Of a DNA stretch of 64,000 bases, positions 26,096-47,800 are shown one piece after another. The notes under the pieces are model-generated. The model saw nothing but the letters and a program-made list of their open reading frames with translations, was not told where the DNA came from and ran no database searches. Both the position numbers and the translations under genes were made by a program. The stretch comes from a virus, in the IMG/VR virus record IMGVR_UViG_3300005098_000017, positions 83,434-147,433 of that record. One strand, 5' to 3'. Numbering within the stretch: position 1 is the stretch's first letter; every line of letters begins with the position of its first letter.

Positions 26096-26472
26096 TGAAT
26101 CTTATACGTATTAAGTATGAGGATACCACCTATGAATTTAATTATCCCACCCTATTTGATTACTACTTGTTTATTGATGGTCAAAAAGTTCGGGTATTTG
26201 ATCGCCTCGCATTAAAGGATTATAGTATTCCATCAATTAAGAAGGTGCGCATTATAACCATCCTCTTTCGTCACTTCCCCGCCTTTGCTACAGAGGATGA
26301 GGTATTTTCCAATATACCGGATGCTGGTGGTTTAATTTATTTAATACGGGTGTTTGGATATAAACCTCACGAATTATTGCAGTTAAATCCTTATGAGCTT
26401 GATTTTGCGGTAAGGTTGGCGGAATATATAAACAATCCAAAACTAGAGAATGACAGTAGTCCGCAGGAATAA
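26095..26472 (+). CDS. Probable second tail assembly chaperone
   Basis: TAATG coupling; FGYKPHELLQLNPYEL..RLAE resembles the C-terminal chaperone pattern seen before tape-measure genes. Confidence 0.5.
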   Translation: MNLIRIKYEDTTYEFNYPTLFDYYLFIDGQKVRVFDRLALKDYSIPSIKKVRIITILFRHFPAFATEDEVFSNIPDAGGLIYLIRVFGYKPHELLQLNPYELDFAVRLAEYINNPKLENDSSPQE

Positions 26473-29400
26473 GCCCTTTCTTTTCCAGAGTGATTTAGCA
26501 CGCATACGCACAGATGAGACATTGCGCAGCCGTTATGGGTGGGGTCGTACACTTTTGCGTTTTGGAGTGGCGATGGCTTCCTTTGCTGTTTTGTCTTATG
26601 GTGCGCGTTCCTTATCGCGTGCATGGCGTGCATTGGCCACATCTGGAGCATTATCACGGAAGTTTGTTGAAGGCGTTAAGGTAGTAAAGAAGTTAGGGCT
26701 TGAGCAGGGTAACTTACTTGATGTAATATTATCAGTATCTAGGCGTGCGCGTCGAGTTGCTTATAAATATGTTAAGTGGTCGCAAGATTATAGGGATGCG
26801 TCGCGGCTTCTGCATTTTGGTAAGGCATTAAGGAAAATATGGAGCGGTGGTAAAGCATCATTAAAGGGTTTTAGGAAGGCGCGTGAGGCTTATCGACGGG
26901 TTGGATTACGAGGTGCATTGTTTGGTGCCTTTTTGCGTGGTGCAGAAAGAGGTGTTGGATTTGCGATTTTATCTTCGGCTGCTGATGCATTAACACATTC
27001 ATTTATAACACCTGCGGATAGAGAGAAGACAAGAAAGTATGGTCCTGTTGCTCGTGTGAAGCGTTTTTTCACTGATGCTGTCCTATTTAGTGGATTACAA
27101 GGACTTTGGGGTGTATCAAAAGTTGCCTTTCCTACCTATATACATAGGTATAGCCCACAAATACAGCGTTTTCTTACCCGCATTGGAGCGCCTACTTATG
27201 TGGCTAAGTTTTATGGATGGAGGCGTCGCTTCTATGATTATCTAATTCGTGCTATAGAATATAAGCAGAAGTTTACTCAGAAATTGCAAGGTGCTAATAT
27301 ATGGCAGCACATAAAGCAGCAGATGAAGGAGCATCCCGGGTTAGGTGCTATTGCAACCTATTTGCGGGAGCAGATAAGGGAAGCTCATCTACATGCTAAG
27401 AAATCGTTTAGGAGGCCGGGTGGATTTCCACCAAGGAGTGGTTATGATACAGTTATAACAATGATGAATTATGCGAAAGAGGTTAATGTTAAGGATCCTA
27501 AGTTTGCAGCGGAGATTGCAGCTCAAGCTGTTGGACGTTATAAAGGTGTGAGTAAGTGGCGGCGGCTTCTTAATATCGAACGTGAAAGGTTGACCAAGAA
27601 GCAGGCTGTTGCTTTCAGGGAGATGCTTGAGAAAATGGGGTTTAGCAAGTCATGGATCGAGACATTAAAGGGGGAGGAACGCAAGTTTTATGAGAATCTG
27701 TATTACCGTGTGATGAGGGGACCATTGTTCCATGGTCCCGGATGGTTTGAAGTAGCCGGGCAAAAGTTTTCACAGTATGAGACGCGTTATTTTGTAAAAA
27801 GAATTCTCCAGAATCTATATGCTGGTCGATGGAGGGGGGTTACACGCATTTTGGCTTCTGCGGCGGGCTTAGACCTCTATGCCAACCGCAGACCTGTATT
27901 TATCTTCCATCCTACCATGGATATTCCGATGAGCGTTCCTATACCGACTGATGAGGGTGTTCGTATGCTACGCTTGGTAACCGAACGTGGTAATGATCGG
28001 GTTCGTCATGGGATTGTATTCTTACAGAATAAATTGTACAGATTATCGCCAACGGAGGAGGGTGGTGAATACTTTGTGGATAGGGTTATAGAGAATGTTA
28101 AATTATATGAGAGCCCGGCTTATAACATATTAAAGAGGGAGTTAACGCAGTATTATATCAAGCAGAGGCGGCGCACGGATGAGATAGGTTTGCGTCCACC
28201 AGGTGAATATGTTAGGGATATAATCAGGAAATTATCGCGGGGTGTTGATAAGGCTAGCTTAGAGGAATTGGTTAATGTATATAAGTCAACCCGTTCGACG
28301 GCCCATATTATCTTTGGTAAATTGTTATCAAAGAAGGAGGTCCGTGAGGTTGCATCGCAGATCTTGGAGCAATTAGGCGCGAGTAGAGCGCAAAGGATCT
28401 TGCAGATGGATGAGGCATCATTAATCAGGGAACTTGAGAAGGTTATAGAAAAGCCTGCACAAGTAACAGAGCGGCTTCGTAACAAGTTTATCTATCTTAT
28501 AAACGCATCACGGAGTAGGATGAGGACTATGAAGGATCTTTTGAATCAGGAGTTTATAGGTTCTGGATATGCAGAAGCACGGGCTAGGCATGTTATTGAG
28601 TCGTTCTTAATTGAGCAGCATTTGACACCAGAAATAAGGGCGAAATTCTTTAGCAGGCTTGCTGAGGAGCAGTTGATCGGGAAGTGGATAAGGAAGCCGG
28701 CTTATACACATTTCTTCAAAGCATTAGCAGAGCTAGCACCTGTTGAGATGGATGCAGAAGCTCTAAGGTCTACTATAAAGGGCGCGCTTAATGATATTGT
28801 AGTCGGTTGGAAAAAATTACCTACAGTTGATCCATTTAGGCCGATATCTGCCTTATTCCAGTATGGTGGATTGGGTATCCACAGGTTATTTGAACCTACC
28901 ATAGAAGGTATACGGGTAATGGGTACTACAGTACCATTTACTGTTGTTAGAGAAGGTATGAGTCCATTTAAACGGTATACGGTAACAAGTTTATTGTTTT
29001 CCCATCACTTACGGCGCATATGGGGATTTATGGATTATGTAAGCAAAGCTCCTCGCAAGTTTCCTATTATCAGGCATTTATTAAGGCGATTAGACCCTAG
29101 ATTGGCTGATACGGCGCATATCTTTCCATTTGAGACTAATACTACTGGTTGGACGGCTTCAGATATGATAAAGAATTTATGGAAGCCGGCGGCTACATTA
29201 TTGGCATTAGGTGTAGGATATAAGGCTGTTGATACATTCTTTGATGAAAGTGGTTTATTTGAAGGGACTGCATTAGGAGAGGGGTTGACACCTGCTATAC
29301 TGGATGCATATGCATTAGGTCGTCTTTCTTTGGCAAGAGTATTGGATATTGCAGGTGTAACTGATGCAGCGCGGTATTTAGAGGGATTAATGCCGGGGTC

Positions 29401-32281
29401 TATGACATGGTTACCAGGTGCACTATATGGCGTATGGAAGTTTGCACCTGCGGGGCCGGCGGCTTCCGCTATGGGTGCATTAATAATGGGTGCTGTTAAT
29501 AAAATGTTAGCGCCATTTTTGCCTGATTTAACAAAGAGTTACGATCAGCTGAAGAGGATATATAGAGGTGAGGAGTATGTGCCTGTAAGGAGAGCAAGGT
29601 ATTGGCCTTTATCTTTAACCCCTTGGGAGGGTTATGATATTGAATATTGGCGGCCTTCTCTATGGTTCATTGTAAGACAGCAGGCAAAATATACTCCTGA
29701 TATAAGTGGTAGCAAGATACAATCCTTATTACAGGGTGATTGGTTATTTGGATTTAATCCATTGCGTGCATTTGATCCATATGCTAAAGAGAGGCAACAT
29801 TATTTCTCTAGGCCGGCGCCTCTCACACAGTTGCCATTTTGGGATGTGCCAGTTATAGGGCCGTTTTTAGCTTTAACTGTTGGGCAGGTATTGAAACCAC
29901 AGCAGATGATGCATACAGCCTTTTTGAAGGAGATGTATCCCGGTGAGTATGGTGTGCCGAAGGGTGAAGTTGTCACACCGGAGGATTTATCTAATCCTGA
30001 TCAATATGTATCAGCTATGCAATCCAATCAAGCTGTTGCAATGTTAATGAATAGATATGCGGGGCGGGCTTACAGGCATGTCACAGGAGATATGCTTAAT
30101 AGAGGTATAACAGAAACTCTGTATAGATCGATGGAGATGGCGGGCTTAAGAGGTTACCTAACATCGTTATTATTAGGAACACAGACACCGCTTAATTTCA
30201 GTAGGTACCTAGAAATGTATGGTGAGAACGAAGGGTTTTTATCTGAATACTGGAACATGGAACTTAATGATGTAGCTGGTGGGTTATCTGAGATGATAAG
30301 AAGATTCCGGCCTGACAAGCGGATAAATACAGTTAACCCTATCCCCAACCTTATGGCACAATTTTTACCCGAAGGAGAGTATGGTGGTAGCGATTTTCTA
30401 CATGGTGATCCTTATACTAAAATTCCTATGGGTTTCATAAGATTGCCGGGGACTGGATATGAGGCAACACATAATGTAATGCATACATTTCCTGCATCGT
30501 TAAGAATGTTGGGTAAGACAGTAACAGAGATAAGGGACATTATGGCCGGGTGGGAGGATATTATTGAGGAGAGAACGGAGCGGGAGCTAAATAGATTTTA
30601 TGATGCTAAGAAGATTGTGCAGGGATTGCTTGAGATATCAGGACAGAATGTTGAGATGGATGTGCAGATTTACGATCCATATAACAACATTGTTGGTACC
30701 GTTGATGCAGTTGTGAGGAGAGGGCGATTTAGGCAACCTATTATTATACGTCCTGTTAGTGAGGAGGAATTTAGGGAGCTTGTTGCCCCGAAGGAGGAGC
30801 ATGCGAGTCAGGTAAATTTTGCTATGAAGTTTTTTGGTGCGAAGACGGGTAAGTTGATTTATGTGAATGTAAGATCGCCTGAACAGATTAAGACATATAC
30901 CATCTTTTTTGATCCATCAAGGTTAAGAGAGGATATAAGTGCATTAAAGAGGGCGAGGGAACAGGCTGGTGAGTTGTTAAGGGCAGGAGCTGTTTTTGAT
31001 TATGGTCGTAGTTATAGCTGGTTTGATAGATATAGAATTTTAGCTGATGTTGCTCCTTTATCTGATCAATATAAGCAGGCGCGTGCTATTATATTGAAGC
31101 AATTGCAACAGGGATTTTTGCCACCTGAGTTATGGGATGAGGTGCATGAGATTGAGCGAAGGCGGCGGCTTCAGCTTTTAAAATATCCTATGTATGTGCG
31201 TCGTTTTACTGGTGAAAATGTTGTTGAAACGGTGCAGAAGCTTTTGCATCCGCCCAGGCTTTCCGGCAGGGAGTTATCGCTATCTTTGAATCCATATTTA
31301 AGGTCGCCTGATGAATACAGTTTACCAGAAAGGATCGTAGGTAGTATCTGGGAGACATTTACACATTTACCAACACCTTATAATAGGAAATTCTTTTTCC
31401 AGTACTCACCGTCAGAGATTTATAAGTATTTCCATTTATATGATCGGGAGTATAAAGCATGGACGCGGCCTATTGAGGATTGGGTTAAGCCGCAGGTTAG
31501 GACGATGCTTGCTTCACAAGGCGTAATGGAGGGCGTGGCTTCATGGGCTACAGCAGGTTATGCTGTTGGTAGGTTATACGGCGGGCTTATAGGTGCAGTG
31601 GCTGGATCCATATATGGGTTGATACCTAAGCCGCCGATGATACCGGAGGATGTGGAGAAGGCGCGCGAGGCTTATTCGTATTATGATAAATTGAAATATG
31701 CACGTAACATGCAGTTTTATGTTATGACAGGTAATAGAATATATGAGGAGCGTGCTGAGCGGACCTTATTGGGTGCGAAGAACTTACGTGATTATGTAAG
31801 AGCATTACCACGTTTTGAGCGCCCATTTACTGTAGCGTTTATGAACATAACTGATGAGAGTGAAAGAGAAAGGATAAGGCAGATTATATCACCTGAGGCG
31901 CGTCGTGCCTTGGATGCAGCATGGGCGAGACGTGAATTGCGGTATAGTGTTGAAGAAGGTGGTTATGAAGAGGTACCGAGAACACCAGCTAATTGGGCTG
32001 GTTGGATTTTTGCGATACCTGATGAGGATATTTATGTGAAGGAGCTTGAGCAGCGGGGTGTTGATCCTCTAGATTTTGGTTATGGTTATCATGGTCAGGC
32101 AGCTGCTGTACGCCGTCTATCTGAAGATTTTGCTATACCTGATCAGACGGTAGATGTAGTCAATATTATGGATGTACAGGAAACAATAGTCAGGTCATTG
32201 CAGGCGCAGGGTATTAGTGCTTCTGTATCCATCATGGGATTTGATAATAGTAGAAGAGTTGATGTCGTTATTTATAAATAA
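26450..32281 (+). CDS. Giant basic tape-measure-like / ejected protein with a degenerate PD-(D/E)XK-like domain, 1943 aa
   Basis: Tape-measure position; helical and Arg-rich with several Gly/Ala hydrophobic segments; nuclease-like segment at about 30600-30960. Confidence 0.65.
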   Translation: MTVVRRNKPFLFQSDLARIRTDETLRSRYGWGRTLLRFGVAMASFAVLSYGARSLSRAWRALATSGALSRKFVEGVKVVKKLGLEQGNLLDVILSVSRRARRVAYKYVKWSQDYRDASRLLHFGKALRKIWSGGKASLKGFRKAREAYRRVGLRGALFGAFLRGAERGVGFAILSSAADALTHSFITPADREKTRKYGPVARVKRFFTDAVLFSGLQGLWGVSKVAFPTYIHRYSPQIQRFLTRIGAPTYVAKFYGWRRRFYDYLIRAIEYKQKFTQKLQGANIWQHIKQQMKEHPGLGAIATYLREQIREAHLHAKKSFRRPGGFPPRSGYDTVITMMNYAKEVNVKDPKFAAEIAAQAVGRYKGVSKWRRLLNIERERLTKKQAVAFREMLEKMGFSKSWIETLKGEERKFYENLYYRVMRGPLFHGPGWFEVAGQKFSQYETRYFVKRILQNLYAGRWRGVTRILASAAGLDLYANRRPVFIFHPTMDIPMSVPIPTDEGVRMLRLVTERGNDRVRHGIVFLQNKLYRLSPTEEGGEYFVDRVIENVKLYESPAYNILKRELTQYYIKQRRRTDEIGLRPPGEYVRDIIRKLSRGVDKASLEELVNVYKSTRSTAHIIFGKLLSKKEVREVASQILEQLGASRAQRILQMDEASLIRELEKVIEKPAQVTERLRNKFIYLINASRSRMRTMKDLLNQEFIGSGYAEARARHVIESFLIEQHLTPEIRAKFFSRLAEEQLIGKWIRKPAYTHFFKALAELAPVEMDAEALRSTIKGALNDIVVGWKKLPTVDPFRPISALFQYGGLGIHRLFEPTIEGIRVMGTTVPFTVVREGMSPFKRYTVTSLLFSHHLRRIWGFMDYVSKAPRKFPIIRHLLRRLDPRLADTAHIFPFETNTTGWTASDMIKNLWKPAATLLALGVGYKAVDTFFDESGLFEGTALGEGLTPAILDAYALGRLSLARVLDIAGVTDAARYLEGLMPGSMTWLPGALYGVWKFAPAGPAASAMGALIMGAVNKMLAPFLPDLTKSYDQLKRIYRGEEYVPVRRARYWPLSLTPWEGYDIEYWRPSLWFIVRQQAKYTPDISGSKIQSLLQGDWLFGFNPLRAFDPYAKERQHYFSRPAPLTQLPFWDVPVIGPFLALTVGQVLKPQQMMHTAFLKEMYPGEYGVPKGEVVTPEDLSNPDQYVSAMQSNQAVAMLMNRYAGRAYRHVTGDMLNRGITETLYRSMEMAGLRGYLTSLLLGTQTPLNFSRYLEMYGENEGFLSEYWNMELNDVAGGLSEMIRRFRPDKRINTVNPIPNLMAQFLPEGEYGGSDFLHGDPYTKIPMGFIRLPGTGYEATHNVMHTFPASLRMLGKTVTEIRDIMAGWEDIIEERTERELNRFYDAKKIVQGLLEISGQNVEMDVQIYDPYNNIVGTVDAVVRRGRFRQPIIIRPVSEEEFRELVAPKEEHASQVNFAMKFFGAKTGKLIYVNVRSPEQIKTYTIFFDPSRLREDISALKRAREQAGELLRAGAVFDYGRSYSWFDRYRILADVAPLSDQYKQARAIILKQLQQGFLPPELWDEVHEIERRRRLQLLKYPMYVRRFTGENVVETVQKLLHPPRLSGRELSLSLNPYLRSPDEYSLPERIVGSIWETFTHLPTPYNRKFFFQYSPSEIYKYFHLYDREYKAWTRPIEDWVKPQVRTMLASQGVMEGVASWATAGYAVGRLYGGLIGAVAGSIYGLIPKPPMIPEDVEKAREAYSYYDKLKYARNMQFYVMTGNRIYEERAERTLLGAKNLRDYVRALPRFERPFTVAFMNITDESERERIRQIISPEARRALDAAWARRELRYSVEEGGYEEVPRTPANWAGWIFAIPDEDIYVKELEQRGVDPLDFGYGYHGQAAAVRRLSEDFAIPDQTVDVVNIMDVQETIVRSLQAQGISASVSIMGFDNSRRVDVVIYK

Positions 32282-35200
32282 TGGCAGTTATAAGGAAAAA
32301 ACATACATATTTGCGTACTTTTACACGCAGGAAGGAACGGGAGAAGGGCAACCGTTTTGCGAAGTTTGGACTGGGGGTTGCTGCTCTTGTGCCTATTGTT
32401 TATTTGGTCAGGGGGCGCGGCTTCGAAAGGCTACATGATTTTCTTAAGACCTTTGCTGAGGCTTCATATAAGAAAGAGGCGCGGGCTTCAGAAGCATCTC
32501 TATGGGCGTATGGGCCTCTTGATAGGATAAAAAAGGCATTCATGGATAATCCATTTTTGTCAGTACTGGGTAATGTTACCAAAAAAGAGGCACAGGGGAG
32601 ATCTGTAAGGGAGGTATTGAATAAGTTAAAAGATATTGTTGAGCTTCTGCGTGAATATTATTCAGTAGCTGAAATAAGAAAATTATTTAATGAGGATATT
32701 ATTCCTTATGCTGATAAAGCGTCTAAGCTTATTGTTGAGGAGGAGAAGCAATTAGTATATAAGTATCAGTTAATGTTTGAGCGGGCGCTTAAGATTCTCA
32801 CGAGGAAGATTAATGAAAAAGGGTGGCTTCCGCGAGACCCATTTCATTTTCGTCTCCTAAGTAAGTATTTACCACATAGCTACAAATTTGGATTGTTTTA
32901 TGGTACGATGCCGAGTTTTTCGGCGCCTCTATTTGAGATTTCTACAGCTAGTGGGCAGTTTGCACAGATTTTCCAAAGGGAGGTAAAGAATCTATCAGAA
33001 AGTGAGGTTTTACTTGGTCAACATGTTGAGCAGGTTATAAAAGATTATGTAAAAAAGCATGTGGTTGTGAATCCTGAGTGGGAGCTTGCTGCTAGTGAGG
33101 TGTTTAAGCATCTATCAGCTGAGGAGCATTTACAGGTCCGAAATCTTGTTACAAGAATTACAGAGCAGGTAGCTAAGTGGTTGCATCGTCATGCCGGTAT
33201 TGATGCAACAGATTTGCCTGATGTGCATGTTGTTATAAAGGCGCAGCGTTATTATGATGTTCCTATGCTAGTTGCTCAGCTGTCGGTTGTTGATCTGCGT
33301 GGGGTCAAAAGGAGTATAGAGATCAAGCTTGGTGTTCCCCAGAAAAGTGGATTGATGGCAGCTATAGGAAATTATCCAACAGCAAATGTCAGATTTGCTC
33401 AAGGTAACAGGGTAAGGTCGATCTTTTCCTTGAAGCTGGAGCGCTTAGGCGAGATGTTTGAGCATGCCTTGAACGATTTATACGAAGGGAAGTCAGAGGA
33501 TTATGTTACCAGACGCATTCATAGAATCATTGGACGATATGATTTATATGGAACTGGGCGTAATGATAAAGCATTCCAGTTGGTGCATTCCATTGTTGAT
33601 AAGGACTTTAAGGATTATGCGGCTTATAATGCTAAAAAGAGATTTTTGAAGCGCGCCGCTGAGTTGGTGCTTGGTGTGAGAAAAGGTAAGTATCGGGTGT
33701 TTATGGATGCTGAGTGGGTTATGGCTGGTATATCGAGTACTGGGACTCAATATGCAGTGACTGAATCCCGCCGGCGCTTGATATGGAGTTTTGCCATACA
33801 AGTTTTTGATGATCTTGGTAATGAGGTTGATAAGTTGGTTGTATTTATAGATCCGAAGACGATAAGCGATGAGTTCTTCATGTCGCAGGTGCGTCGTTTT
33901 GGATTATCAAAGGCAGCTGCTGAGGAGGCATTAAAAGCGGTTAGAGGTCGTGTTGCGATGCCTGCTGGATATGTCAGAGTTGATAGTGAGATGGAGGCCA
34001 GCCGGCTTATATGCAAGAAAATAAAAGACATAATTAATAAATATGGTAAGGATGATCTACTTGTTATGGGTAAGAACTTCTGGAGCTCAGAGGTTGCATT
34101 GTTGGAGCGGGCCTTTAAAGCTGACAGTAATATATTAAATTATATCAAAAGAAAGTTAGTTGATATAGAGGATATATATAGGTTGGTATATGGTGCTAAG
34201 GCTATTAACAGGTCATTAAGTGTTGAGGCTATTCTCGATTATGTAAAGGTATCGGATGAAGGATCGAAGCTATTGGGCCGGCTTCTTAATTATGAACCGA
34301 GGGTTGAGGTCCAAGCGTTTGCTAATTTAGTTAGGTCGCTACATTTTGGTGAGCAAGATAACAGGATTGCATACATCCTATCAAAAATTGCGGAGAGCAT
34401 GGTTAATAATGATCCTGAGTTGCGTGAGAGAGTACTAAGGATTTATGATATTGTAGCGAAGTCACAGGGAGCTGTTTTATCATTTACAACGCAGCAGGAG
34501 TTCATGCAGCGGGCTTATAATTATGTAAAGGAGCAATTGAAATCTGTTGGTGTTGGTTCGCCTAATGCTGCGCGTAAGTGGCGTTTTGAATATCCGTTTA
34601 ATCCAGCTGATTGGGTTCCGCTATTTGTTCCCACCTTGGAGAAACAGAGGTATCAGTTAGGCCGCGGCTTACCTTTATCGGAGGCATCGAAAAGATTGCT
34701 TGAAACTCTTAAGAAGGAATATGCTAGGCGCGTATTAGGGTTGGGTGAGGCTGATATCAATTATCTAGGACCGGCGCTTATTTCTATGCCATTTAAGAGA
34801 TTCCTAGAACAGCAGATGTTATATAATGTCCGTAGTGTATTTACGATACCTGTCTTCTCAACATTTTTCCCATTTGCTGGCGAAGGACATATGTTTATAC
34901 ACAGGAGACTTACTGAGCTATCGACAGTAGTGCAGGAGGTGATTAGTCAGAAAATTCCGATAAGTAGGTTGGAGAATATGGATGCTCGTATGCAGTTGTG
35001 GGCGAAGCTTTTTGAATCTGCCATGGAGGCTGTTAAGACATCTCCGAAGCTGGGTGAGTTAATTAAGAGCAAATTTAATAATGATATTGTTAAGTTTTTG
35101 AGAGCTGTAGATTTGTCGATTGTTATTGGTAGATATCGTGGATGGATAAAGGATTCTGAGCGGTTGGCTAATGTTTTAGCGCAGTTGTTTCCGGGGTTTC

Positions 35201-38200
35201 CTATCAAGCGTTTTGTTGGTCATGCTATTGGTAGGAATCTAAGAGGTCTTACTATAAAACAGTATATGGCATTGCGCCGCGGTGTGCGTGCACCAAAAAT
35301 AAATTTGGGGGATATATGGAAGGAGATATTTAGCGACAAAGCAGCTGCTCATCCGTTATACGACATGTTGAGTAATGATAATATGTTGAAACTTGGATTG
35401 ATGGATGAGTCTGCTCAGGCAGGTTATGCACAATGTGCATTAATAAGGGAGATCTTTAATAGATTGGTAGAATCGGGGCTTCATCTTACCAACCCAGAGC
35501 AGTACATCAAGTATGGTACTTTCGTAATGACGGACCGGCTTCAGCTTGGTGATAAGGTTGTAAAAATTGGTTATAATGGTAAATTGGTTTTTAATAAGGT
35601 AATTACATCTTATGATCTTACAGGTATACCTTCATTAGATTTTTCACTTACCTATGAGATAGTTTTGCCAACCCCCTTAAAGTGGGTTACATATTATCAA
35701 AAAGGTATGGGGACAGCACAGCGCTGGTCCTTAAGTCAATTTCCGTATTATCTTATAGAGCCGGCACGTTTTATGGAGCGTGGTGAATTGGGCATCTTTA
35801 TAGAGACAGAGATGACCCGGCTAAAGGAGGCATTAATTAAAAAATATGGTGTGCGGGAAGCCGCCAATGTTATGTCAAAGATGACAAAGGACCTCAATGA
35901 TTATATGAATAGAGTGGTTAATTACGCTATTAAGGAGCACGGGCTTCCCATCAAACTTACCAGTCCGTTGTTTATATTCAATCCCAAAATGATGGCAATA
36001 GAGGGCAATTATGATTTGTTTAACACATTGACAACAGAACAAAAGGGATTATTGTGGACAGTATTTTTGGAGGGTTTACCTGAGAAGGTGGGAAAGATTG
36101 GTGGATATCCAAGCTTGTTTGATTATCTTGAGGCTAAATTCAAGGAGCATGGTATTGTTGTAACTCCCCAAGAAAGGAGGATATTCAGAAGATATGTACA
36201 GAAACAATATGCGTTGTATAAGAACAAAAAGATAAGCGAAAAGGAATTTTTTGAAACAGTCTTGCTGAAGGACATAGCTGATGAGAGGATACGAAACTGG
36301 TTTAGCAGATTATATTATGGAGATGATAGGGAGCAGCTGGCGCGCTTATTCGATATATATCAGATAAAATTAGGTAAAAGGGTTGTTGAACTTATTGGTT
36401 TGGGCCGTCATAGCCCCTTTGGGTTGGGTGATACGGCTCTAACTAGTACCTACAAAAGTTTTGTTCGTATACCAATGCAGATGTATTGGGATATCCATCG
36501 CTGGCCTCATTTGGAGGGTATGGCTCAATTTATTGATGCCTTCCAAGCTCAGAATCTACCTATTTATGAGACACTTCTTAAGATGGCTGATATGCTAAAA
36601 ATGAGTCAGTCATCTATTGATGAGTTGGTGAAGGCAGGGGGTATCTATGCTGTACCGGTGCGGCGCTTCTTTGACTTTGTGCGCAAACATATGAATCTTC
36701 TTAGGTCAATAAGGGAGGATATATATGTACCAGAAAAGATATTAGAGGAGGCTCATGGTGATATGGTTCGTGCTGTCCAAATGATGCTTGATCTGGGTGT
36801 ATCGTTAACGGATTTTAAGGAGAATGCTATAAAGTTTGAAGGCGCGCAGGTCCGTGCGCAGGTTGCCAAGGAGGTGCAGGATTTCCTCAGACAGATATTT
36901 GAGGAGGCGCAAGGGAAGCGCGTTGTTATCGATGTAGGCAGGGCAATGTCTGTTTCCTATAAGAACCTTGAGTCGATGATTGGTCAGAATGATGCTATTA
37001 TTAGGGATCTTATAAAATATTTAGAGAGAATGGGTTACAACAAGCTGAAGTATATACCATTGGGGACAAGGGAATTTTGGGATCTGTCATTTCACCAGAT
37101 TGGTAGAGACCAAGTTATTGTTGAGCCTCAGGTTAAGAAGTTGCTGCAATTAATGGCATCGATTGCATCAATTAAGGGTAAGGTGCAAGCAACTGGTGTG
37201 CCATCGGCGCAGGTTAAATTTGAAGAGAGAAATGTATTTTATAAGCAGTTTGTTAATTATCTTGGTTCTATAGCTAGTAGCTTTATAGGCCGGCAATCCT
37301 TATGGGCACGCACTGCTGTAACACATCTTCCTGGTGTTGAGGGTGTTGGACTTCCGTCCTTCTTGCTTTTTAATAAGTCGCGGCTTCTTGACACAGTTGT
37401 ATGGGAGCCATTTACGACCTATGTTGATGCTTCTGTTATTGAGAATCTCAGAGGTATGTTGGAAGCCGCCGGCTTCTCCAAAGAATTTATCGATGCTTTT
37501 TACAAGGGTAGTCCTAATGTAGCATTTTTAGGTATGCCCGGACGTATGCCATTCCACCCCGGTATGGGATTGATAGGATTTATAAAGAGTTTAACCAAGC
37601 AGCAGAAGAAACATGTTTCATCTGTAAGCGATGCTGTTAAAATATATATGGATCCTTTATTGATAACGAAGGTTCTATTGGGTGACTGGGATACAGATAG
37701 ATTGATGGCGTTACTAACAATGACATCTCCGAAGGGTGCTGAGGATATAACAAGGATATGGAAGTGGGTCTATGGTTTATCAGATCAGGATGTTGCATTT
37801 CTTATGTCGTATGGTAAGTTTAGAGCTGGTGACAGGAAGGCTATAGGTGAATTGCAGACATTTTTTACGTCTGTTTTTGAGAAGATGACAAAAGAGCAGA
37901 AGGAGGCATATATACAGAGCAAAGAGTTTGAGGATATGCTCCACAAAAGATTATCAGCCATTGTTGCAAGAATGAAGGAAGGATATTTGAGCTGGTTTGG
38001 TAAGTCTGAGGCAGAAGAGTTAAGCGAGCGGGTCGAGTTTTTAGTGACAGGTGATGTGACGAAGATACCGACAACGGAGGGTAAGGTTATTTATTTACCG
38101 ACTATATTAGCGCAGATGCGTGGTTATACGATGAAGATTGAAAAAATGTGGCCGTTTATACAGGAGGCTAAAGAGATTGCGAGGAAGGAAGGAATTCCAT

Positions 38201-39342
38201 TCAAGGAGGCGTTAGCTAAGCATATGGCTGACGTTTTTGCTAATAGGGAGCTTAGGAATGTACTGGGTACATCGATGGCTGGTAAAGCTGATGTGATAAG
38301 AACAGGGTATGCATTAGCATTGCAGCATATATATAAATTAAGAGCTGAAGGGCTTTCATATCAGGATATAAGTAAGATCATGGGATTAAGCATTCCAGAA
38401 GCATTTGGTCAAGTATTTGATAAATGGATGGCGGCGGGTTCTGAAAGACAGAAGATGATTCTCACATTTGAAAGGGAAATACTCGATAAGGTATTAAAGA
38501 TGAAGCGTGGTGGTTCTCCAGAGGCGATGGCTGAAGCAATAAATAATCTTGCTAATGAGTTGCTGGAGTATAGTAAGGTTTCATCATCTGTTGCGAAGAA
38601 AGGACATGAGTTAATAGATAAATTTGTTGCAGAAATTGATTGGGAGAAGATGGGATTGAAGCCGCGTGATGCTTTATACATGATGGGGTGGTTATTAAGA
38701 AACACGCAATGGACTATCCGTAATTCCAGTTATCTTGTTACGAGACAATCGATAAATAGAGGTCTTATTGAAGCATATGCGATGTTTGCATCCCGTTTGC
38801 TGAGTCAACCGACGGGTCCTACGGTAAGCCCGACATTGTTAGATGCATTGTCGGGTGAGGTATTAAGGGGCATGGCAAAGGAGCCGAAGCCATTGAATGA
38901 ATTACTTGGCGAGCAAACAGCAAATATGAGGTTTAGGGAGGCATTGGCGGGCTTCCTTACAAAAACATTTGAGAATTTATCTAAATCAAGAAAACATAGA
39001 TTGCTATTAGCAGGTGCATTGGCTGGGATAGCGGGATATATATTAAGCGGGCCGAAATTAAGAGGAGATATATTTTCATTTGGTATCGATATAGGCACAG
39101 TGCATGGATTGGAGCCGAGCTTCTTTGATGGTAGATGGACATACCCTGAGTTGCCCCGAGGGGAGGATATAAGGGGTTTGGAGAATCCATATCATAAAAG
39201 GAAAATTTATATTCTACGTAATATAAGGCGCAGGAACCCTGCATTATTTAATGAGTTAAGGAGGCGCGGTATAATTCAAGAGTGGGAAATGTCGGCGCCT
39301 TATGATTACCCACGCAGAGAAAGGAAGGTGATCTATGTATGA
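32281..39342 (+). CDS. Giant protein, 2353 aa: DEDDh exonuclease-like domain plus candidate single-chain two-barrel RNA polymerase
   Basis: FMDAEW / GKNFWSSE / HFGEQD (Exo I-III); GEGHMFIHRR, KWVTYYQKG, GRMP and LGDWDTD in RNAP order; ORF certain, function inferred. Confidence 0.65.
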   Translation: MAVIRKKHTYLRTFTRRKEREKGNRFAKFGLGVAALVPIVYLVRGRGFERLHDFLKTFAEASYKKEARASEASLWAYGPLDRIKKAFMDNPFLSVLGNVTKKEAQGRSVREVLNKLKDIVELLREYYSVAEIRKLFNEDIIPYADKASKLIVEEEKQLVYKYQLMFERALKILTRKINEKGWLPRDPFHFRLLSKYLPHSYKFGLFYGTMPSFSAPLFEISTASGQFAQIFQREVKNLSESEVLLGQHVEQVIKDYVKKHVVVNPEWELAASEVFKHLSAEEHLQVRNLVTRITEQVAKWLHRHAGIDATDLPDVHVVIKAQRYYDVPMLVAQLSVVDLRGVKRSIEIKLGVPQKSGLMAAIGNYPTANVRFAQGNRVRSIFSLKLERLGEMFEHALNDLYEGKSEDYVTRRIHRIIGRYDLYGTGRNDKAFQLVHSIVDKDFKDYAAYNAKKRFLKRAAELVLGVRKGKYRVFMDAEWVMAGISSTGTQYAVTESRRRLIWSFAIQVFDDLGNEVDKLVVFIDPKTISDEFFMSQVRRFGLSKAAAEEALKAVRGRVAMPAGYVRVDSEMEASRLICKKIKDIINKYGKDDLLVMGKNFWSSEVALLERAFKADSNILNYIKRKLVDIEDIYRLVYGAKAINRSLSVEAILDYVKVSDEGSKLLGRLLNYEPRVEVQAFANLVRSLHFGEQDNRIAYILSKIAESMVNNDPELRERVLRIYDIVAKSQGAVLSFTTQQEFMQRAYNYVKEQLKSVGVGSPNAARKWRFEYPFNPADWVPLFVPTLEKQRYQLGRGLPLSEASKRLLETLKKEYARRVLGLGEADINYLGPALISMPFKRFLEQQMLYNVRSVFTIPVFSTFFPFAGEGHMFIHRRLTELSTVVQEVISQKIPISRLENMDARMQLWAKLFESAMEAVKTSPKLGELIKSKFNNDIVKFLRAVDLSIVIGRYRGWIKDSERLANVLAQLFPGFPIKRFVGHAIGRNLRGLTIKQYMALRRGVRAPKINLGDIWKEIFSDKAAAHPLYDMLSNDNMLKLGLMDESAQAGYAQCALIREIFNRLVESGLHLTNPEQYIKYGTFVMTDRLQLGDKVVKIGYNGKLVFNKVITSYDLTGIPSLDFSLTYEIVLPTPLKWVTYYQKGMGTAQRWSLSQFPYYLIEPARFMERGELGIFIETEMTRLKEALIKKYGVREAANVMSKMTKDLNDYMNRVVNYAIKEHGLPIKLTSPLFIFNPKMMAIEGNYDLFNTLTTEQKGLLWTVFLEGLPEKVGKIGGYPSLFDYLEAKFKEHGIVVTPQERRIFRRYVQKQYALYKNKKISEKEFFETVLLKDIADERIRNWFSRLYYGDDREQLARLFDIYQIKLGKRVVELIGLGRHSPFGLGDTALTSTYKSFVRIPMQMYWDIHRWPHLEGMAQFIDAFQAQNLPIYETLLKMADMLKMSQSSIDELVKAGGIYAVPVRRFFDFVRKHMNLLRSIREDIYVPEKILEEAHGDMVRAVQMMLDLGVSLTDFKENAIKFEGAQVRAQVAKEVQDFLRQIFEEAQGKRVVIDVGRAMSVSYKNLESMIGQNDAIIRDLIKYLERMGYNKLKYIPLGTREFWDLSFHQIGRDQVIVEPQVKKLLQLMASIASIKGKVQATGVPSAQVKFEERNVFYKQFVNYLGSIASSFIGRQSLWARTAVTHLPGVEGVGLPSFLLFNKSRLLDTVVWEPFTTYVDASVIENLRGMLEAAGFSKEFIDAFYKGSPNVAFLGMPGRMPFHPGMGLIGFIKSLTKQQKKHVSSVSDAVKIYMDPLLITKVLLGDWDTDRLMALLTMTSPKGAEDITRIWKWVYGLSDQDVAFLMSYGKFRAGDRKAIGELQTFFTSVFEKMTKEQKEAYIQSKEFEDMLHKRLSAIVARMKEGYLSWFGKSEAEELSERVEFLVTGDVTKIPTTEGKVIYLPTILAQMRGYTMKIEKMWPFIQEAKEIARKEGIPFKEALAKHMADVFANRELRNVLGTSMAGKADVIRTGYALALQHIYKLRAEGLSYQDISKIMGLSIPEAFGQVFDKWMAAGSERQKMILTFEREILDKVLKMKRGGSPEAMAEAINNLANELLEYSKVSSSVAKKGHELIDKFVAEIDWEKMGLKPRDALYMMGWLLRNTQWTIRNSSYLVTRQSINRGLIEAYAMFASRLLSQPTGPTVSPTLLDALSGEVLRGMAKEPKPLNELLGEQTANMRFREALAGFLTKTFENLSKSRKHRLLLAGALAGIAGYILSGPKLRGDIFSFGIDIGTVHGLEPSFFDGRWTYPELPRGEDIRGLENPYHKRKIYILRNIRRRNPALFNELRRRGIIQEWEMSAPYDYPRRERKVIYV

Positions 39343-39506
39343 AAATTATAGTTAGAGTATCACCAAATGCAGATATTGTTCGTGTTGAAGCGGCAATACG
39401 TAATGCTTTGATGGCGTATGATTTAGATGTACGGTCGATACAAGTGGTAACAACAGCTTTCGGACAGGAGGAGTATGCCAGAGGACCCGAAAAAACCGAG
39501 GCTTGA
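39339..39506 (+). CDS. Small 55-aa protein missing from the ORF track (MKIIVRVSPNADIVRVEAAIRNALMAYDLDVRSIQVVTTAFGQEEYARGPEKTEA)
   Basis: ATGA overlap with the previous stop; purine-rich SD-like AGGAAGGTG upstream; fills the only gap in the gene chain. Confidence 0.7.
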   Translation: MKIIVRVSPNADIVRVEAAIRNALMAYDLDVRSIQVVTTAFGQEEYARGPEKTEA

Positions 39507-42500
39507 TTACAGGACAGCTATTATAGGTACTGTTCCTGTGATTGTTACAGATTTTAGAGTTGTTGAGAATTTTTCCTACCAGCAGATACAGACGCTACGT
39601 ATGGATAATAATGTTATTTACCAGATACCCGGAAGGAATTTGTATGTTATTATTGGATTAGAATTTCCTGATGGTTATTCCATTAATACAGGACTGCGTG
39701 AGCTCCATGCCATGATGTTTCTTGCTTCCATTGTACCTATTTATAGTCCGTGGCTTAATGACATGGTTATTGCATCGTTTGATCAATATAGAGGGCTTGC
39801 TGAATTAATGGGTGTTAATACAGATGTAAACATTTATGCATTGCGTCGTTTAACGATGAGATCTGTTGAGTCGCCTTATGCTATTGGTGTTGAGATGGAG
39901 ATTGCTCCCATGGATTTAGATGCGGCGCGGCTTAAACCCCAATTCCTTGTGGATGAAGAGGCAGCGCGGGCTAAATCTGAATTTATAGCGAGGTTGTTTG
40001 AGTTATATGAAACGATGAAGAGAAGTGAGGACCCGCTGGCTTATTTGGATGGCTTTACATCTATCTACAATGATTACAAGAGGGCTGTTGCTAATAAGGT
40101 TGTCGACTTCCTATGGCAGTCAGAATTATTTAAAAGGTGGATAAGCATAATATATCCTGAGGGTGATAAGTCACTTTTACCAGTTCAAGGGGTGCGGCTT
40201 AAACGGCAGCTTGGTATATGGAGACAAACGCCATTTGCTAATATTGTTATTCATTATCTTCATATGGCTGATGATATCGTATCGTTGCGAGATGAAATCC
40301 ATAAGTATGTTTCAGATGTGGCTAGTAGTACAGCGAAAATGATCCGTGATTATGTAGCTGATTACGAACAAATTCAGCAGGTTGGCGCGCCTCGACGATT
40401 TTTTCAAGTATTACAGACATTATATAATAGCATTAAAGGTGGCATACGCACCCGTGTTGATAGTTCATTAATGGGTACTATAGCATTTGGCAATCAGATA
40501 AGAGAGATGTTACTTGAGGTTGCATTACGTATGGATAATGGGCAGAGAGGTAAGTTTACTAACTATGTGCAAAGGATTCTATCTCTGACGGCGGGGCCTA
40601 ATCTAGTAGTCCCTGAGATGATGATGGAAGGTGAATCAGCTATTGTTACAATGTCTGATTTTCTTACTAGATTTTTTGCGGAATTAGGTAAGAAGTTGGA
40701 TACGGATTCATACAAAATTTTTGTTGATTTATTTGCTGATGTTATGTCTGAACGTATTGCGTATTGGGAGTTGTTTTCAAAGGTGATGAAATATGAGACA
40801 TTTGATTTTGGTAAGTATCGTGCTACTCCAACCAGATGGGAATACACTGTGACTAATAAATTTGTACCTCTGAGGATTGGTGATGCAGTAGCTCCCTTGT
40901 TGCAACATCTTGGTACTGACAGTCCTATATTTAGGGTGCAGTATGCATGTGGTGATGGTCTGGCCATAAGGCAGCTAAAACAGTTAAGAGATGATGTTGA
41001 TAAGGCTGTGCAACAGATAAATGAAATAGGGTCATATTTCCCTTGGATTACGAGATATATAGAGCCTATAATATTATCCTCAACGGACGGCTTAATTGAA
41101 TTTCTGGGCATGCAGCATGCGGTTTTAGATTCAGTAAGTATTAATCCGATGGAAGAAGCCGCGATGGTTGCTGAGGCTACATGTACATTTGTTGCCTCTG
41201 ATATAACGATTTTTGATTACGAGCAGTTTGAGTTTGCCGATACTGTTGGTGCCAATAATTTATCATGTCTATTATTATTCTATGCATTGCGTAAATGGTA
41301 CCAGGAAATTTTTGGCAAAGACCTTCCTCCGAGTGGTACTGTTGCAGAGACGGTGCAGCCATTAAAGGAAGGTGAAGATATTTCGAAGCTAAGGATTCCG
41401 TTTAAATTGTTTGATGTTATGGATTCACAGAATGTAACGAAGCGTGCATTTCAGTATGCGATGACATTATCCAAAGCTGAGAATCAGAATTATTATAACT
41501 TCACTATCTATAATTCAGATAAAAAGGCTGTATATGCATTAAATGAGGGTGTGGTTACTAACGTAACTAATAATCTGGTTGATGGTTATATAGTTCGTGT
41601 GAAAAACGGTGATTTTGTAACGGAGTATAGGAATCTGGGGAAATTGGCAGAGGATATTAAGCCGGGCGAAAAGGTGTTGGGTGGACAATATTTAGGGGAG
41701 GCGCGCTTCTTTGCTAGTGGAACATATCCAACCGAAGTACAGGAAAAAGAAGTTAAAATGCTACCTAACCTATTAGGATTAGGGGTGCCTGAGGTTGTTC
41801 AAGAATACAAGAAGAAAGTAAAAACATCTGGTCCTGCGCCTTATGGGGTGTTTATATTATTTATGTATAAAAATATTCCATTGGACCTAGAAATTTATAA
41901 AGGTAAGGAGGTTTTTGAAAAAGCAGCTAATATATCTGCGCCCACAGATATATATGCATATTTTTGGACCCATACTAAGGATGATAAAATAACATGGGCT
42001 GGGCATACCTATGATGTGAAAAATAATCCTTATGTCCAAGGATATGTAAATAGTGTCTTAGGTGGGATACCTATTTTAGAATCAATTTCGAATCGTGTTT
42101 TTGATGAGAAGACATTTTTTGATGTCCTTATTCGATTACTGATGGAGAAATGTATGACATGTGTATCGTCATTTGATATTGCTGGCTTGGAGCAGAAACT
42201 TGCAAATGAATTGGGTATGGAGCCGGCTTCTGCAACTGATAAAGCTGTTCCAACACAGGAGGAATATGTGCCCGTTCTTGGCCGTCCATACTTTACCCAC
42301 CCATCATTGGAAGAGATGAAACTACCAGAGCCACAATTACCTCCTAAGGTAACTCCGGCACCAGAGGAAGGAAAAATGGAAGTACCTGAGGAGAAAGTAG
42401 AGAAACCGCAGCTTTCTGCACCAAAAGAATTACCTGAGGAGGCCCCGCCAGTAGAGGTGCCGCCTAGTGAACCACCAATGATAGAAGAAGGTGAAAAAGA

Positions 42501-44868: not shown

Positions 44869-47800
44869 TGCCAGAGGATAGAACAAATATTGTCTCCGAT
44901 CCAAGCTCTAAGCCTACTGGAGATGGGAAGACTAAAGATAAGGGTTATGGGATGTTGCCTCTAACGGCTAATTTATTTTTAGATGATATGCTTCAATTTA
45001 CGAATGAAGCATTTCCTCTTGCATCTGCGATGTCTATATTGAGTGGTGATTATCATTTTATTGTGCGTAATTGGACGACGGCTTACCCAGATAGGTATAT
45101 ACCTGACAGGATTTTAAATAAGAGGGGGTCGACGCCTCTATTCTACTATGATAGTGATATAGGAATTAACAATAAAGTTATACGTGCTCTTGTTAATGAG
45201 ACTCGGTATCAGGCTAATATGATTCTTAATCAGTTGGCGGCGTTTACTAATATGCCGGAGGATCTTATTGAATCTATTAAGCAGCAATTAAAGAAATTTT
45301 ATGGACCTGAGGCCGCCAATAAGTTTGAAAATGAAATTAAAAAACATACTTACGGGAAGAAGTTAGATTTAAAGGAATACAGGAAGTTTCTTGAACAATT
45401 TAAAGAGCTTTATTTAGATGATTCGCGGCTTCAATACCTGCTTGATTCATCGGATAAGCAGACAAGCAAGTTGTTAGGTGGCTTGGATGCGCGGCTTGGT
45501 CTATTATCATGGTTAAATGTCCGCAATTACGCGCGCTTATATATTAAGCTTTTGGAGCTCAAGGAGATATTGGAGCAGATTGGAAAGGGAGAGGGAGCCG
45601 TGCCTCCTGATGCTGATGCGCTTAATCTTATAAAGGCGATGATAATAGCTAAGTACAAGGTTGATAATCCAAAGGCATCAGAAGCAGATATATCAGCTAA
45701 GGCTGCTGAGATAGATGCTGCTTTTGGTGATGAAGCAAAGTTAGCACAAGTGTTGACAAAATATGGTAAGGAGCTCGCTGACATATATAGTTCATATGAT
45801 AAATTAAGTAAGTTTGTTGATAAGCTTATTAATGTTTGGACAAAGGATCCATTTTTTAGCGGGTTGTTATCGGCGTATAGGGCAGAGAATAGAAGTATCA
45901 CTGAAATTTTATGGTTGGCAAGGGATATTGCCCATGTTGATGCCGTGTTTGCGGCTAAAAATGTAGAAGATGCTGTGAATACCTATTTCCAGCATTCCCT
46001 TATGGTGGGTCCTAAAGAATTTGAAACACAGTTAGATATTTTATACCGCATTCTGGTTACGTATCCTCTAGAGGTTGCCTATAAAGTGAACCGAATTTAT
46101 CCAACATTCAGGATTTTCCTTGTTCATCCGGGTACGGGGCTTATTTACTCATTCAGAGACTTTTATTCACCAAAGGCTGTTGAGAGTATTGATATTTATA
46201 GAGACAAGTTAGGCACGGCAGATGTATGTCGTATAACGGTTTCCAATCGGGGTGGTCAGTTTGTAACAGATCTTCCAGCATTTCTTGAGCCACATGATAT
46301 TATTGATGCAGGGGGTGCAAGGACACCTCTTATGTTAAAGCCCGGCATGTATCTTATTGTGAAATTAGGCTATGCTAATTTGGAAAATGATCTTAGGACT
46401 AGGTTTATAGGGCGCATAACAGATGTACAGATGCAGGAAGGGCGCATTGTTGTTATGGCACAAGGTCTCGGTACTCAGTTGTTGATGGTACCCGGGCAGG
46501 ATGAGGATCATAAGGGTGAGATTAAAGTCAAAGATGGCGGAATATTAAGGTTATTGGGGTTTGGTTCTATTATAAGTAGTTATGGGGCGCTTATTGCTCA
46601 TTTATTATTACAGACGCGCGGGCTTGGTGATCTAGGTCGCCGTGTGAGTTTGTTCCGTAGGTGGGAGCTAGGGTATCGTGGTGCTGTTTATAAAACGCAT
46701 CGTGGTCCTGTTATGTTTGCATTATCTAATGTATTGAATCGTTTTCTACATAATACAGCACACCTTTTACCATCTTTTGCCAAGAAGGTCGTTGGTGTCT
46801 TTAAATATTCGCCATTATATTATCTGTTGCCTAAGCGGACGCGTGATAATATAGACAAAATGGTTGATGCCTTACCTTTATTGCCCACGATCATGGATTC
46901 ATATCGCCATTACCGGGATGTGACACATAATATTGGTGCGCTTATGGAAAATATTTATATCGATGCTGGTGTTGGTGGAGCTAGTACATACACGGGGCTA
47001 GGAAAATATGCATGGGATATACTAGCTCAATATTTTAGAAGCATATTTGGTGGTATTGGACGTGGGCGTTCGGCTGAAGACATTCAATCGCAGCAGAGAC
47101 CTATTAATAGTGAGGTTGTTCCATGGGGTATTGAATACTATACTCGTGCAAAGTCCTTGTATGATTGCTTGAAGGAAGTAGCATGGTTCTTCCCCGGATA
47201 TATTTTATATACACCGTTTTATAATGAGGATTTTGTGTATAGTGCGCGGGCCACTATATTTATAGGTCAGAAGACATTTTATTACAGATACAGAGATGAT
47301 TTATATTCAAGGGTTGAGGATGGTCCTGTTATTAAGAAAGCATTATTGGAAATCATTGATGATGCGATACAGAATATAGGTAAATTAAAGAAAGTTGACT
47401 GGGTTTATCGTTATGGGCAATTGTTTTATCTATTTCCTGATATAAATTCCATCTTGGGCAAGTACAGCTCTTCACGTATGAGGTCATCGCCGACAACACA
47501 GCCAGGGAAACTTCCCGGTTATTTAGATTTAGTTTCTGGCGGTCGTGCACATGCTGTTCCACAAACAGTAACAGAAAATAAAGGTGATATAACTGGGGAG
47601 GAGTTTAGGGTTCAATTGCAGGATCTTAGGACTCTTATCGAAACAGAGGGTGAATCATTACATAAAACGGGGAAGAACATCTTCCACTTAAAGTTCTTGT
47701 TTAGACCTGAAAATTATTCTCCCGATGTTTATAACTATGTATTATCGATGAAGCCAGAGATTGCGTTGCATATGGTATCAGCGCGCCCGCTTCAAAAAAC

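Follow-up and report, generated by a model that had tools for sequence, protein, structure and literature searches.

The question raised by this locus is whether a giant protein encoded in the tape-measure slot of a phage tail module is also an RNA polymerase (RNAP). The locus lies in the IMG/VR contig IMGVR_UViG_3300005098_000017 (147,433 bp), and the window analysed here is the right 64 kb of this contig. An earlier note, made from the letters of the window, had read one giant open reading frame (ORF) as a candidate single-chain two-barrel RNAP that a myovirus would inject. This ORF, here called P0001, was found exactly as the earlier note had placed it, as a single open frame of 2353 amino acids (aa) at 32281-39342 on the plus strand. 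In addition, the contractile tail of a myovirus was borne out by the sheath (1094 aa), baseplate wedge, portal and terminase genes of the window. The data show that P0001 is a gene, where it lies, and how its residues of the beta-prime type are conserved and spaced. We favour, at a likelihood a little above even, the reading that P0001 is a virion-delivered protein of the tape-measure slot with a diverged single-chain two-barrel RNAP.

Conserved residues of the beta-prime-like segment

32281..39342, plus strand: giant ORF P0001, 2353 aa; the start ATG overlaps the stop TAA of the 1943-aa ORF upstream (TAATG)
37288..37725, plus strand: candidate beta-prime-like barrel, aa 1670-1815, with the anchors G1670-R, P1684, G1690-L-P1692, R1755-x-P1757, D1791-P-L1793 and G1801-D-W-D-T-D1806
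37543..37551, plus strand: R1755-M-P1757, the RxP motif, invariant across the family
37684..37698, plus strand: D1802-W-D1804-T-D1806, the candidate Mg-binding triad

Two-barrel RNAPs have been described as having eight invariant residues, and the RxP and DxDxD motifs hold five of these eight (PMC2919709). The DxDxD motif is the Mg-binding triad of the beta-prime-like barrel (D479, D481 and D483 in Rpb1), and the RxP motif corresponds to R446/P448 in Rpb1 and R962/P964 in QDE-1 (PMC2919709). The motifs that the earlier note had picked out in P0001 all lie where it had put them, namely FAGEGHMFIHRR at aa 865-876, KWVTYYQKG at aa 1134-1142 (35680-35706), GRMP at aa 1754-1757 (37540-37551) and LGDWDTD at aa 1800-1806 (37678-37698). 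Furthermore, DWDTD is the sole DxDxD within P0001.

The family of P0001 is very small (about four members: P0002, L004, P0003 and P0004 besides P0001). P0002 and L004 are close relatives (91% and 94% identity), P0003 is a protein of 2268 aa with 22-24% identity from a 112-kb contig (locus L002), and P0004 is the C-terminal piece of a broken homologue in locus L003. When the conservation of the two proposed catalytic motifs was checked, R1755, P1757, D1802, D1804 and D1806 proved invariant in three lineages at 22-28% identity. The three Asp residues are kept in P0001, L004, P0002, P0003 and P0004 alike, and the triad reads DWDTD in P0001, DYDGD in P0003 and DFDAD in P0004. D1791-P1792-L1793 and G1801 are also invariant in all family members. 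In addition, the ratio of nonsynonymous to synonymous substitution (dN/dS) between P0001 and its L004 homologue is 0.06 over the whole length. P0001 is therefore a real gene, constrained throughout.

Beyond the motifs of the earlier note, we found four extra anchors of the beta-prime type, which are G-K/R, P, GLP and H/D-P-L. These four lay outside the earlier selection and are conserved. Counted on the sequences, the anchors lie at G0, P14, GLP20-22 and R85 in P0001, and at G0, P15, GLP23-25 and R81 in Escherichia coli RpoC; the H/D-P-L anchor stands 9-10 residues ahead of the triad in both P0001 and E. coli beta-prime. The resulting six-anchor pattern matches RpoC 344-464, 79 of 80 beta-prime loci, P0001 1670-1806, P0002, P0004 and L004, and P0003 fails it by one residue in one spacer. 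No other match was found in 177,000 aa of other ORFs, and none of 20,000 shuffles of P0001 matched, a significance that is overstated because the pattern was composed post hoc, with both sequences already seen. Thus, P0001 resembles the double-psi barrel of RpoC (aa 344-464) in six anchors in the same order and with near-identical spacing. It differs from RpoC in being a single 2353-aa chain in a phage tail module, in having no match to the Pfam model RNA_pol_Rpb1_2, and in reading DWDTD instead of DFDGD.

The distance from RxP to the first Asp is 47 aa in P0001 and 39 in both P0003 and P0004. Counted in the same way, it is 35 in beta-prime and 39 and 38 in two virion RNAPs that are compared with P0001 below, gp66 of the crAss-like Cellulophaga phage phi14:2 and gp96 of the Thermus phage P23-45. 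In QDE-1 it is 45 (PMC2919709).

Searches for further relatives returned little. A tblastn search of phage GenBank with P0001 gave no match, and three word-indexed searches of a set of 5.8 billion proteins, together with a full HMMER scan of 1.84 billion representatives, returned only P0002, P0003 and P0004. Scans of IMG/VR and of JGI metagenomes, which used family profiles as well as degenerate DNA patterns for 'YxDPL..GDxDxD', returned only L004 and chance matches. In L003, four in-frame stops (TGA, TAA, TGA, TAA) fall within 150 nucleotides at 9346-9498, in a frame that can still be aligned, and the upstream tail genes are inverted on the opposite strand. This contig is probably chimeric or has a low-quality stretch.

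Fold prediction and the proposed beta-like half

Besides the post hoc origin of the six-anchor pattern, several results weigh against a polymerase, and they are given here together. The hhalign comparison of the family with the beta-prime profile aligned 79 columns (score 20, P = 0.06), in which RxP fell on NRAP, DPL on HPL and GDWDTD on ADFDGD. This score is non-significant and was reached by 11 of 200 column shuffles, and other stretches of P0001 outscored aa 1670-1815 against unrelated parts of the beta-prime profile. As a benchmark, we used gp66, the crAss polymerase validated by experiment, whose 25-member profile scored 20.7 (P = 0.13) over 31 columns only against the same beta-prime profile. 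Because this validated family scores alike, the non-significant score has the look of a true remote member and is not evidence against membership. Similarly, the models PF00562, PF00623 and PF05183 gave no match in P0001, and the validated gp66 family likewise fails the profile-score test, so that known members do not need a significant profile match. The scores of the beta-prime hidden Markov model (HMM) against the family were negative.

The AlphaFold2 check gave a mean predicted local distance difference test (pLDDT) score of 40.2 for aa 830-1900 (5 sequences) and 36.9 for aa 1645-1860 (4 sequences), so that the models were unusable; this failed because the family has only about four members. 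Both of these low-confidence models are mostly helical. In addition, searches of Pfam, PHROG and NCBIfam with the whole P0001 and its fragments, and sequence searches of PDB with P0001 and three family profiles, gave nothing relevant.

The beta-like half is the weaker half of the proposal. Known beta-like barrels carry an invariant Asp (D837 in Rpb2, D709 in QDE-1) and a basic loop with two basic residues (K979/K987 in Rpb2). The corresponding candidate in P0001 is the following.

35548..35703, plus strand: candidate basic loop of the beta-like barrel, aa 1090-1141, with G-D-K1092, N1099-G-K1101, K/R1134 and K1141; the assignment is ambiguous

The strand that the earlier note had likened to the beta 'EDSILVS' did not hold up, since E868 is not conserved (it is Q in L003) and only G869 is invariant there. 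Its 'K..QKG' motif held in part: K1141 is the same in all sequences and position 1134 is K or R throughout, but Q1140 and G1142 vary. About 40 residues upstream of this motif, the stretch G-D-K1092...N-G-K1101 resembles the beta 'GDKMAGRHGNKG' loop. NGK (N1099-G-K1101) is invariant, and GDK1092 precedes it in three of four sequences, L003 reading 'KMASRQPNGK'. One hhalign run laid this stretch on RpoB 1060-1094 (P = 0.15), and the match was lost after realignment of the family. For the barrel Asp, the acidic candidates are the invariant D944 and the conserved acidic pair 1042-1043, and for the basic loop the lysine candidates are K1101, K/R1134 and K1141, with none of them assignable. The family alignment is unstable in this region and the hhalign results against beta are inconsistent and non-significant, so the beta-like barrel could not be placed and is not established. 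Judged from the aligned sequences, aa 1090-1141, which include the motif of the earlier note, form a candidate region for the basic loop of a putative second barrel.

We also considered a beta-like barrel in the upstream 1943-aa gene, in the fashion of rpoB and rpoC. The GDK, ED and DxDxD motifs are all missing from this gene, which also gave no profile match, and the idea was rejected.

The tail module and the alternative explanations

In the tail module, two short ORFs (225 and 125 aa) are followed by giants of 1943, 2353, 1797 and 1337 aa, and P0001 is the second giant. The neighbours of P0001 are listed here.

26450..32281, plus strand: upstream giant, 1943 aa; its homologues are gp145 of Bacillus phage 0305phi8-36 and, in L002, the 1975-aa gene
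39475..48881, plus strand: downstream giants of 1797 aa (M23 match below threshold) and 1337 aa; their relatives are the hub/lysin gp147 of 0305phi8-36 and, in L002, the genes of 1290 and 1512 aa
39339..39506, plus strand: small ORF, 55 aa; its ATG overlaps the stop of P0001

From the arrangement of the reading frames, P0001 is translationally coupled inside a four-giant tail module, and this module is conserved in L002. All four giants are present there in the same order, with identities of 35%, 22%, 22% and 25-37% to their counterparts in the window. The alignments put P0001 among the most diverged members of the module (22%, like the third giant).

The 1943-aa protein matches gp145 of 0305phi8-36 in five collinear segments (E down to 3e-16), and the fourth giant matches the hub/lysin gp147 from the same phage over its C-terminal part. 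In 0305phi8-36, two chaperone genes are followed by gp145 (1930 aa), gp146 (2537 aa), gp147, and P2 V-like and J-like genes. The record annotation states that mass spectrometry detected both gp145 and gp146 in virions. Furthermore, orf146 was assigned as the tape measure from the tail length (PMC2147016). Because of this synteny with orf146, P0001 is placed in the tape-measure slot. The earlier note had taken the upstream 1943-aa gene for the tape measure; it is a gp145 homologue instead, and P0001 itself sits in the orf146 slot. The location of P0001 among tail genes was confirmed: it lies between the gp145 homologue and the hub, in a region that encodes ejected proteins.

The strongest alternative is that P0001 is a plain tape-measure or ejection protein, a long, mostly helical ruler and channel former whose conserved acidic loop has some other use, for instance stabilisation by a bound metal or an enzymatic or assembly site unrelated to RNAPs. 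We hold this possible, at a probability clearly below even. P0001 lies where gp146 does, preceded by two chaperone-like genes and a gp145-type giant and followed by a gp27-like hub, and the two are of similar length (2353 vs 2537 aa). P0001 also has, as tape measures do, a hydrophobic segment close to either end and a C-terminus that is strongly conserved, and gp146 likewise has a hydrophobic segment about 100-130 aa before its C-terminus. The largely helical low-confidence models and the fast evolution of P0001 (22% identity, vs 35% for the neighbouring giant) fit as well. To the points against a polymerase it must be added that the counterpart in the orf146 slot is an assigned tape measure without DxDxD, and that the RNAP of 0305phi8-36, orf99, is encoded elsewhere. 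gp146 has neither DxDxD nor the arrangement of RxP and triad, it has no detectable homology to P0001, and hhalign gave nothing significant between them. Tape-measure family models gave no match to P0001. A plain tape measure leaves unexplained why the R, the P and the three Asp residues that are invariant in RNAPs, together with GLP and DPL, stay invariant at beta-prime spacing in a segment of 24% identity. In addition, ruler and polymerase are compatible, as P23-45 gp96 is both (PMC10770324).

A second alternative is a decayed polymerase relic, in which an ejected protein keeps a barrel of the beta-prime type to bind nucleic acid or metal but makes no RNA; such a barrel might, for instance, hold the DNA end. 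It would agree with a second barrel whose Asp and two basic residues are not confidently identifiable, and with the replacement of the canonical Gly of the triad by T (DWDTD). However, all five catalytic residues of the beta-prime side are invariant under strong purifying selection, and relics usually lose such residues; furthermore, the active gp66 also has no Gly in its triad (DFDID; bioRxiv 10.1101/2020.03.07.982082). We consider a relic very unlikely.

The idea that the segment belongs to LPD38, a domain family of phage 'polyvalent proteins' unrelated to RNAPs, came from a language-model feature search in which LPD38 supplied the nearest neighbours of aa 1660-1835 (score 0.95, 19 of 30 matches) and from its presence in giant ejected phage proteins (PMC5512222; bioRxiv 10.64898/2026.04.10.717836), but its Pfam model matched neither the fragment nor anything in the whole genome even at E = 10, the recognition value of 1453 with 161 shared features is below the tool's levels for true family members, and this extremely improbable lead was dropped for want of HMM support.

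For the two-barrel RNAP that we favour, known phage systems offer three comparisons. The first is gp96 of P23-45, a virion two-barrel RNAP fused to a tape measure and thus both ruler and polymerase (PMC10770324). Like gp96, P0001 is a giant in the tape-measure slot of a tail operon, it shows no detectable overall similarity to cellular RNAPs, and its DxDxD follows RxP (in gp96, DFDGD about 38 residues after it). P23-45 is a siphovirus, whereas the present phage is a myovirus. The polymerase of gp96 is its N-terminal 1200 aa, with DFDGD at 779, whereas the triad of P0001 lies at 1802 of 2353 aa, behind an exonuclease-like region. The activity, the structure and the delivery of gp96 with the DNA to transcribe the first genes are established, whereas P0001 is known from its sequence. 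The earlier note had taken the system for the most likely undescribed one in the window. This stands in so far as we found no paper on such a protein in a myovirus, but a virion two-barrel RNAP fused to a tape measure has been published for P23-45 (PMC10770324).

The second is gp66 of phi14:2, an active virion two-barrel RNAP with the triad DFDID, without Gly (bioRxiv 10.1101/2020.03.07.982082; structure PDB 6VR4, as cited in PMC10770324). It resembles P0001 as a virion protein of about 2200 aa flanked by giant virion proteins, with beta-prime similarity confined to one barrel, and its RxP stands 39 residues before a Gly-less triad, the distance also seen in P0003 and P0004. Unlike P0001, gp66 comes from a podovirus-like crAss phage, where it is packaged in the particle and is not in a contractile-tail operon, and it fails the six-anchor pattern that the P0001 family matches. 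No profile similarity was found between the gp66 and P0001 families, and no sequence or profile similarity between P0001 and gp96. The family HMM scored at most about 1 bit, with negative best-domain scores, against gp66, gp96, RpoB and RpoC; the family profile found nothing in the phi14:2, P23-45 and E. coli records; and hhalign gave nothing against gp96 and no triad alignment with the gp66 family. On the reading that we favour, P0001 would be an analogue of P23-45 gp96 and crAss gp66, unrelated in sequence to both.

The third is orf99 of 0305phi8-36, a single-chain two-barrel enzyme of phages of the YonO/QDE-1 type (PF05183; PMC2919709, PMC2147016). Its RSP, NPF and DTDGD come in the same order as RMP, DPL and DWDTD of P0001, with no further BLAST or profile similarity. 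It is encoded by a gene of its own in the right arm of 0305phi8-36, which is not grouped with the tail genes (PMC2147016). The tail module of that phage is homologous to the module of the present phage.

No beta/beta-prime (PF00562, PF00623) or YonO-type (PF05183) polymerase and no other DxDxD candidate was detected elsewhere in the 147-kb contig. P23-45 has a second, non-virion RNAP, and none was found in the present contig. The contig is estimated to be 84% complete, and another polymerase could thus be missing, which again weakens the case for P0001.

We infer the barrels, the activity, the packaging and the role of P0001 in early transcription, and the proposed course is as follows. P0001 would enter the particle in the manner of a tape measure or ejection protein, using the hydrophobic segments at its N- and C-terminal ends as well as its conserved C-terminus. 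It would then leave through the tail with the DNA and transcribe the first phage genes without the host polymerase, as gp96 and gp66 do. The polymerase core would lie at about aa 1000-1900, in the central to C-terminal part. There, D1802, D1804 and D1806 would bind the catalytic Mg ions, R1755 and P1757 would position the incoming nucleoside triphosphate, and a second, beta-like barrel with a basic loop would occupy about aa 1040-1145. The exonuclease-like motifs and a helix-turn-helix-like stretch may be accessory modules. An all-against-all comparison of the intergenic regions for a phage promoter gave no conserved long motif, and a scan of the first 20 kb of the contig showed no enrichment of sigma-70-like sites, with 73 present where about 87 were expected.

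Other modules and implications

The remaining features of P0001 are listed here.

32356..32409, plus strand: N-terminal hydrophobic segment, aa 26-43, behind a basic stretch; similar in P0003 and in the upstream giant
33706..34359, plus strand: DEDDh-exonuclease-like motifs D476-x-E478, G-K-N599-F..E/D604 and H688-x4-D693, conserved in the family, at the motif level only
34978..35460, plus strand: mosaic segment, aa 900-1060, with 44-80% identity to L004 and saturated synonymous sites
38329..38394, plus strand: helix-turn-helix-like stretch, aa 2017-2038, with a match to sigma-70 region 4 below threshold
38998..39159, plus strand: C-terminal hydrophobic segment, aa 2240-2257, then the best-conserved stretch of the family, aa 2262-2293, 'GD.FS.G..IG.V.G..PS..D..W..PELP'

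The first two giants, both in the window and in L002, have a common N-terminal layout of a short basic stretch and then a hydrophobic segment at about aa 26-55. This layout suggests a shared signal for loading or membrane insertion. For the exonuclease-like region, hhalign against E. coli DnaQ put H688/D693 on the ExoIII motif (P = 0.21), P0003 reads 'HDALID' at this motif, and Pfam and PDB searches of the region gave no match. With an 81-aa fragment, the sigma-70 region 4 match reached 20 bits (E = 5.5e-4), short of the cut-off of 25.7, and the helix-turn-helix-like pattern 'GLS..(D/E)I...(L/M)...I' is kept in the homologues. A bolder reading joins these modules in a lineage of large contractile-tailed phages distantly tied to 0305phi8-36. 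P0001 would then be a membrane-anchored, injected transcription machine made of a 3'-5' exonuclease, a two-barrel RNAP and a sigma-region-4-like helix-turn-helix, and its RNAP core would be closer in motif layout to cellular beta-prime than that of any known phage single-chain enzyme. We consider this bolder reading unlikely as a whole.

In the mosaic segment, the synonymous divergence (dS) from L004 is about 2.5, whereas it is about 0.5 elsewhere, and the rest of L004 is 92-100% identical. This segment looks like a patch exchanged by recombination, not like the result of diversifying selection. Downstream of the P0001 homologues, ORFs of 58 aa in L002 (16829-17005) and 61 aa in L003 (11538-11723) share with the 55-aa ORF of the window the start pattern M-x-I-I-V/I-K/R. 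By this shared start and position, the ORFs of 55-61 aa are a conserved small partner gene, seen in all three lineages and beginning either at the stop of the giant or shortly behind it.

In the window, three ORFs of 285, 392 and 668 aa after the sheath (21355-25390) all match phrog_9206, a family that bears the label 'major head protein', but their position makes paralogous tube or tail proteins more likely. Meanwhile, the palindrome GAAGCCGCGGCTTC has six exact copies genome-wide, and its 12-nt core occurs eight times. It lies, for example, at 15531, 36719, 44543, 67433, 75633 and 78122 of the contig and at 59503 of the window. Several copies are in gaps between minus-strand ORFs of the non-structural arm, and others are inside ORFs. 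No T run follows the copies, and a TATAAT-like or shared downstream sequence follows some of them. By its sequence and placement, the palindrome may be a regulatory hairpin. In addition, the distant homology of the tail module to that of the Bacillus jumbo phage 0305phi8-36 (gp145, gp147) ties this uncultured lineage to that 'ancient' group.

If P0001 were merely a tape measure, the finding would be an ordinary one. If it is an active polymerase, the strategy of P23-45, in which the first transcription enzyme sits inside the protein that fills the tail, would reach from a thermophilic siphovirus to contractile-tailed phages, and virions would have acquired the two-barrel fold on three or more occasions, in sequence families unrelated to one another. 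In addition, a single-chain enzyme with beta-prime-like motif spacing would be useful for relating minimal to cellular RNAPs. Furthermore, an active P0001 would explain how infection could start without the host polymerase in such phages.

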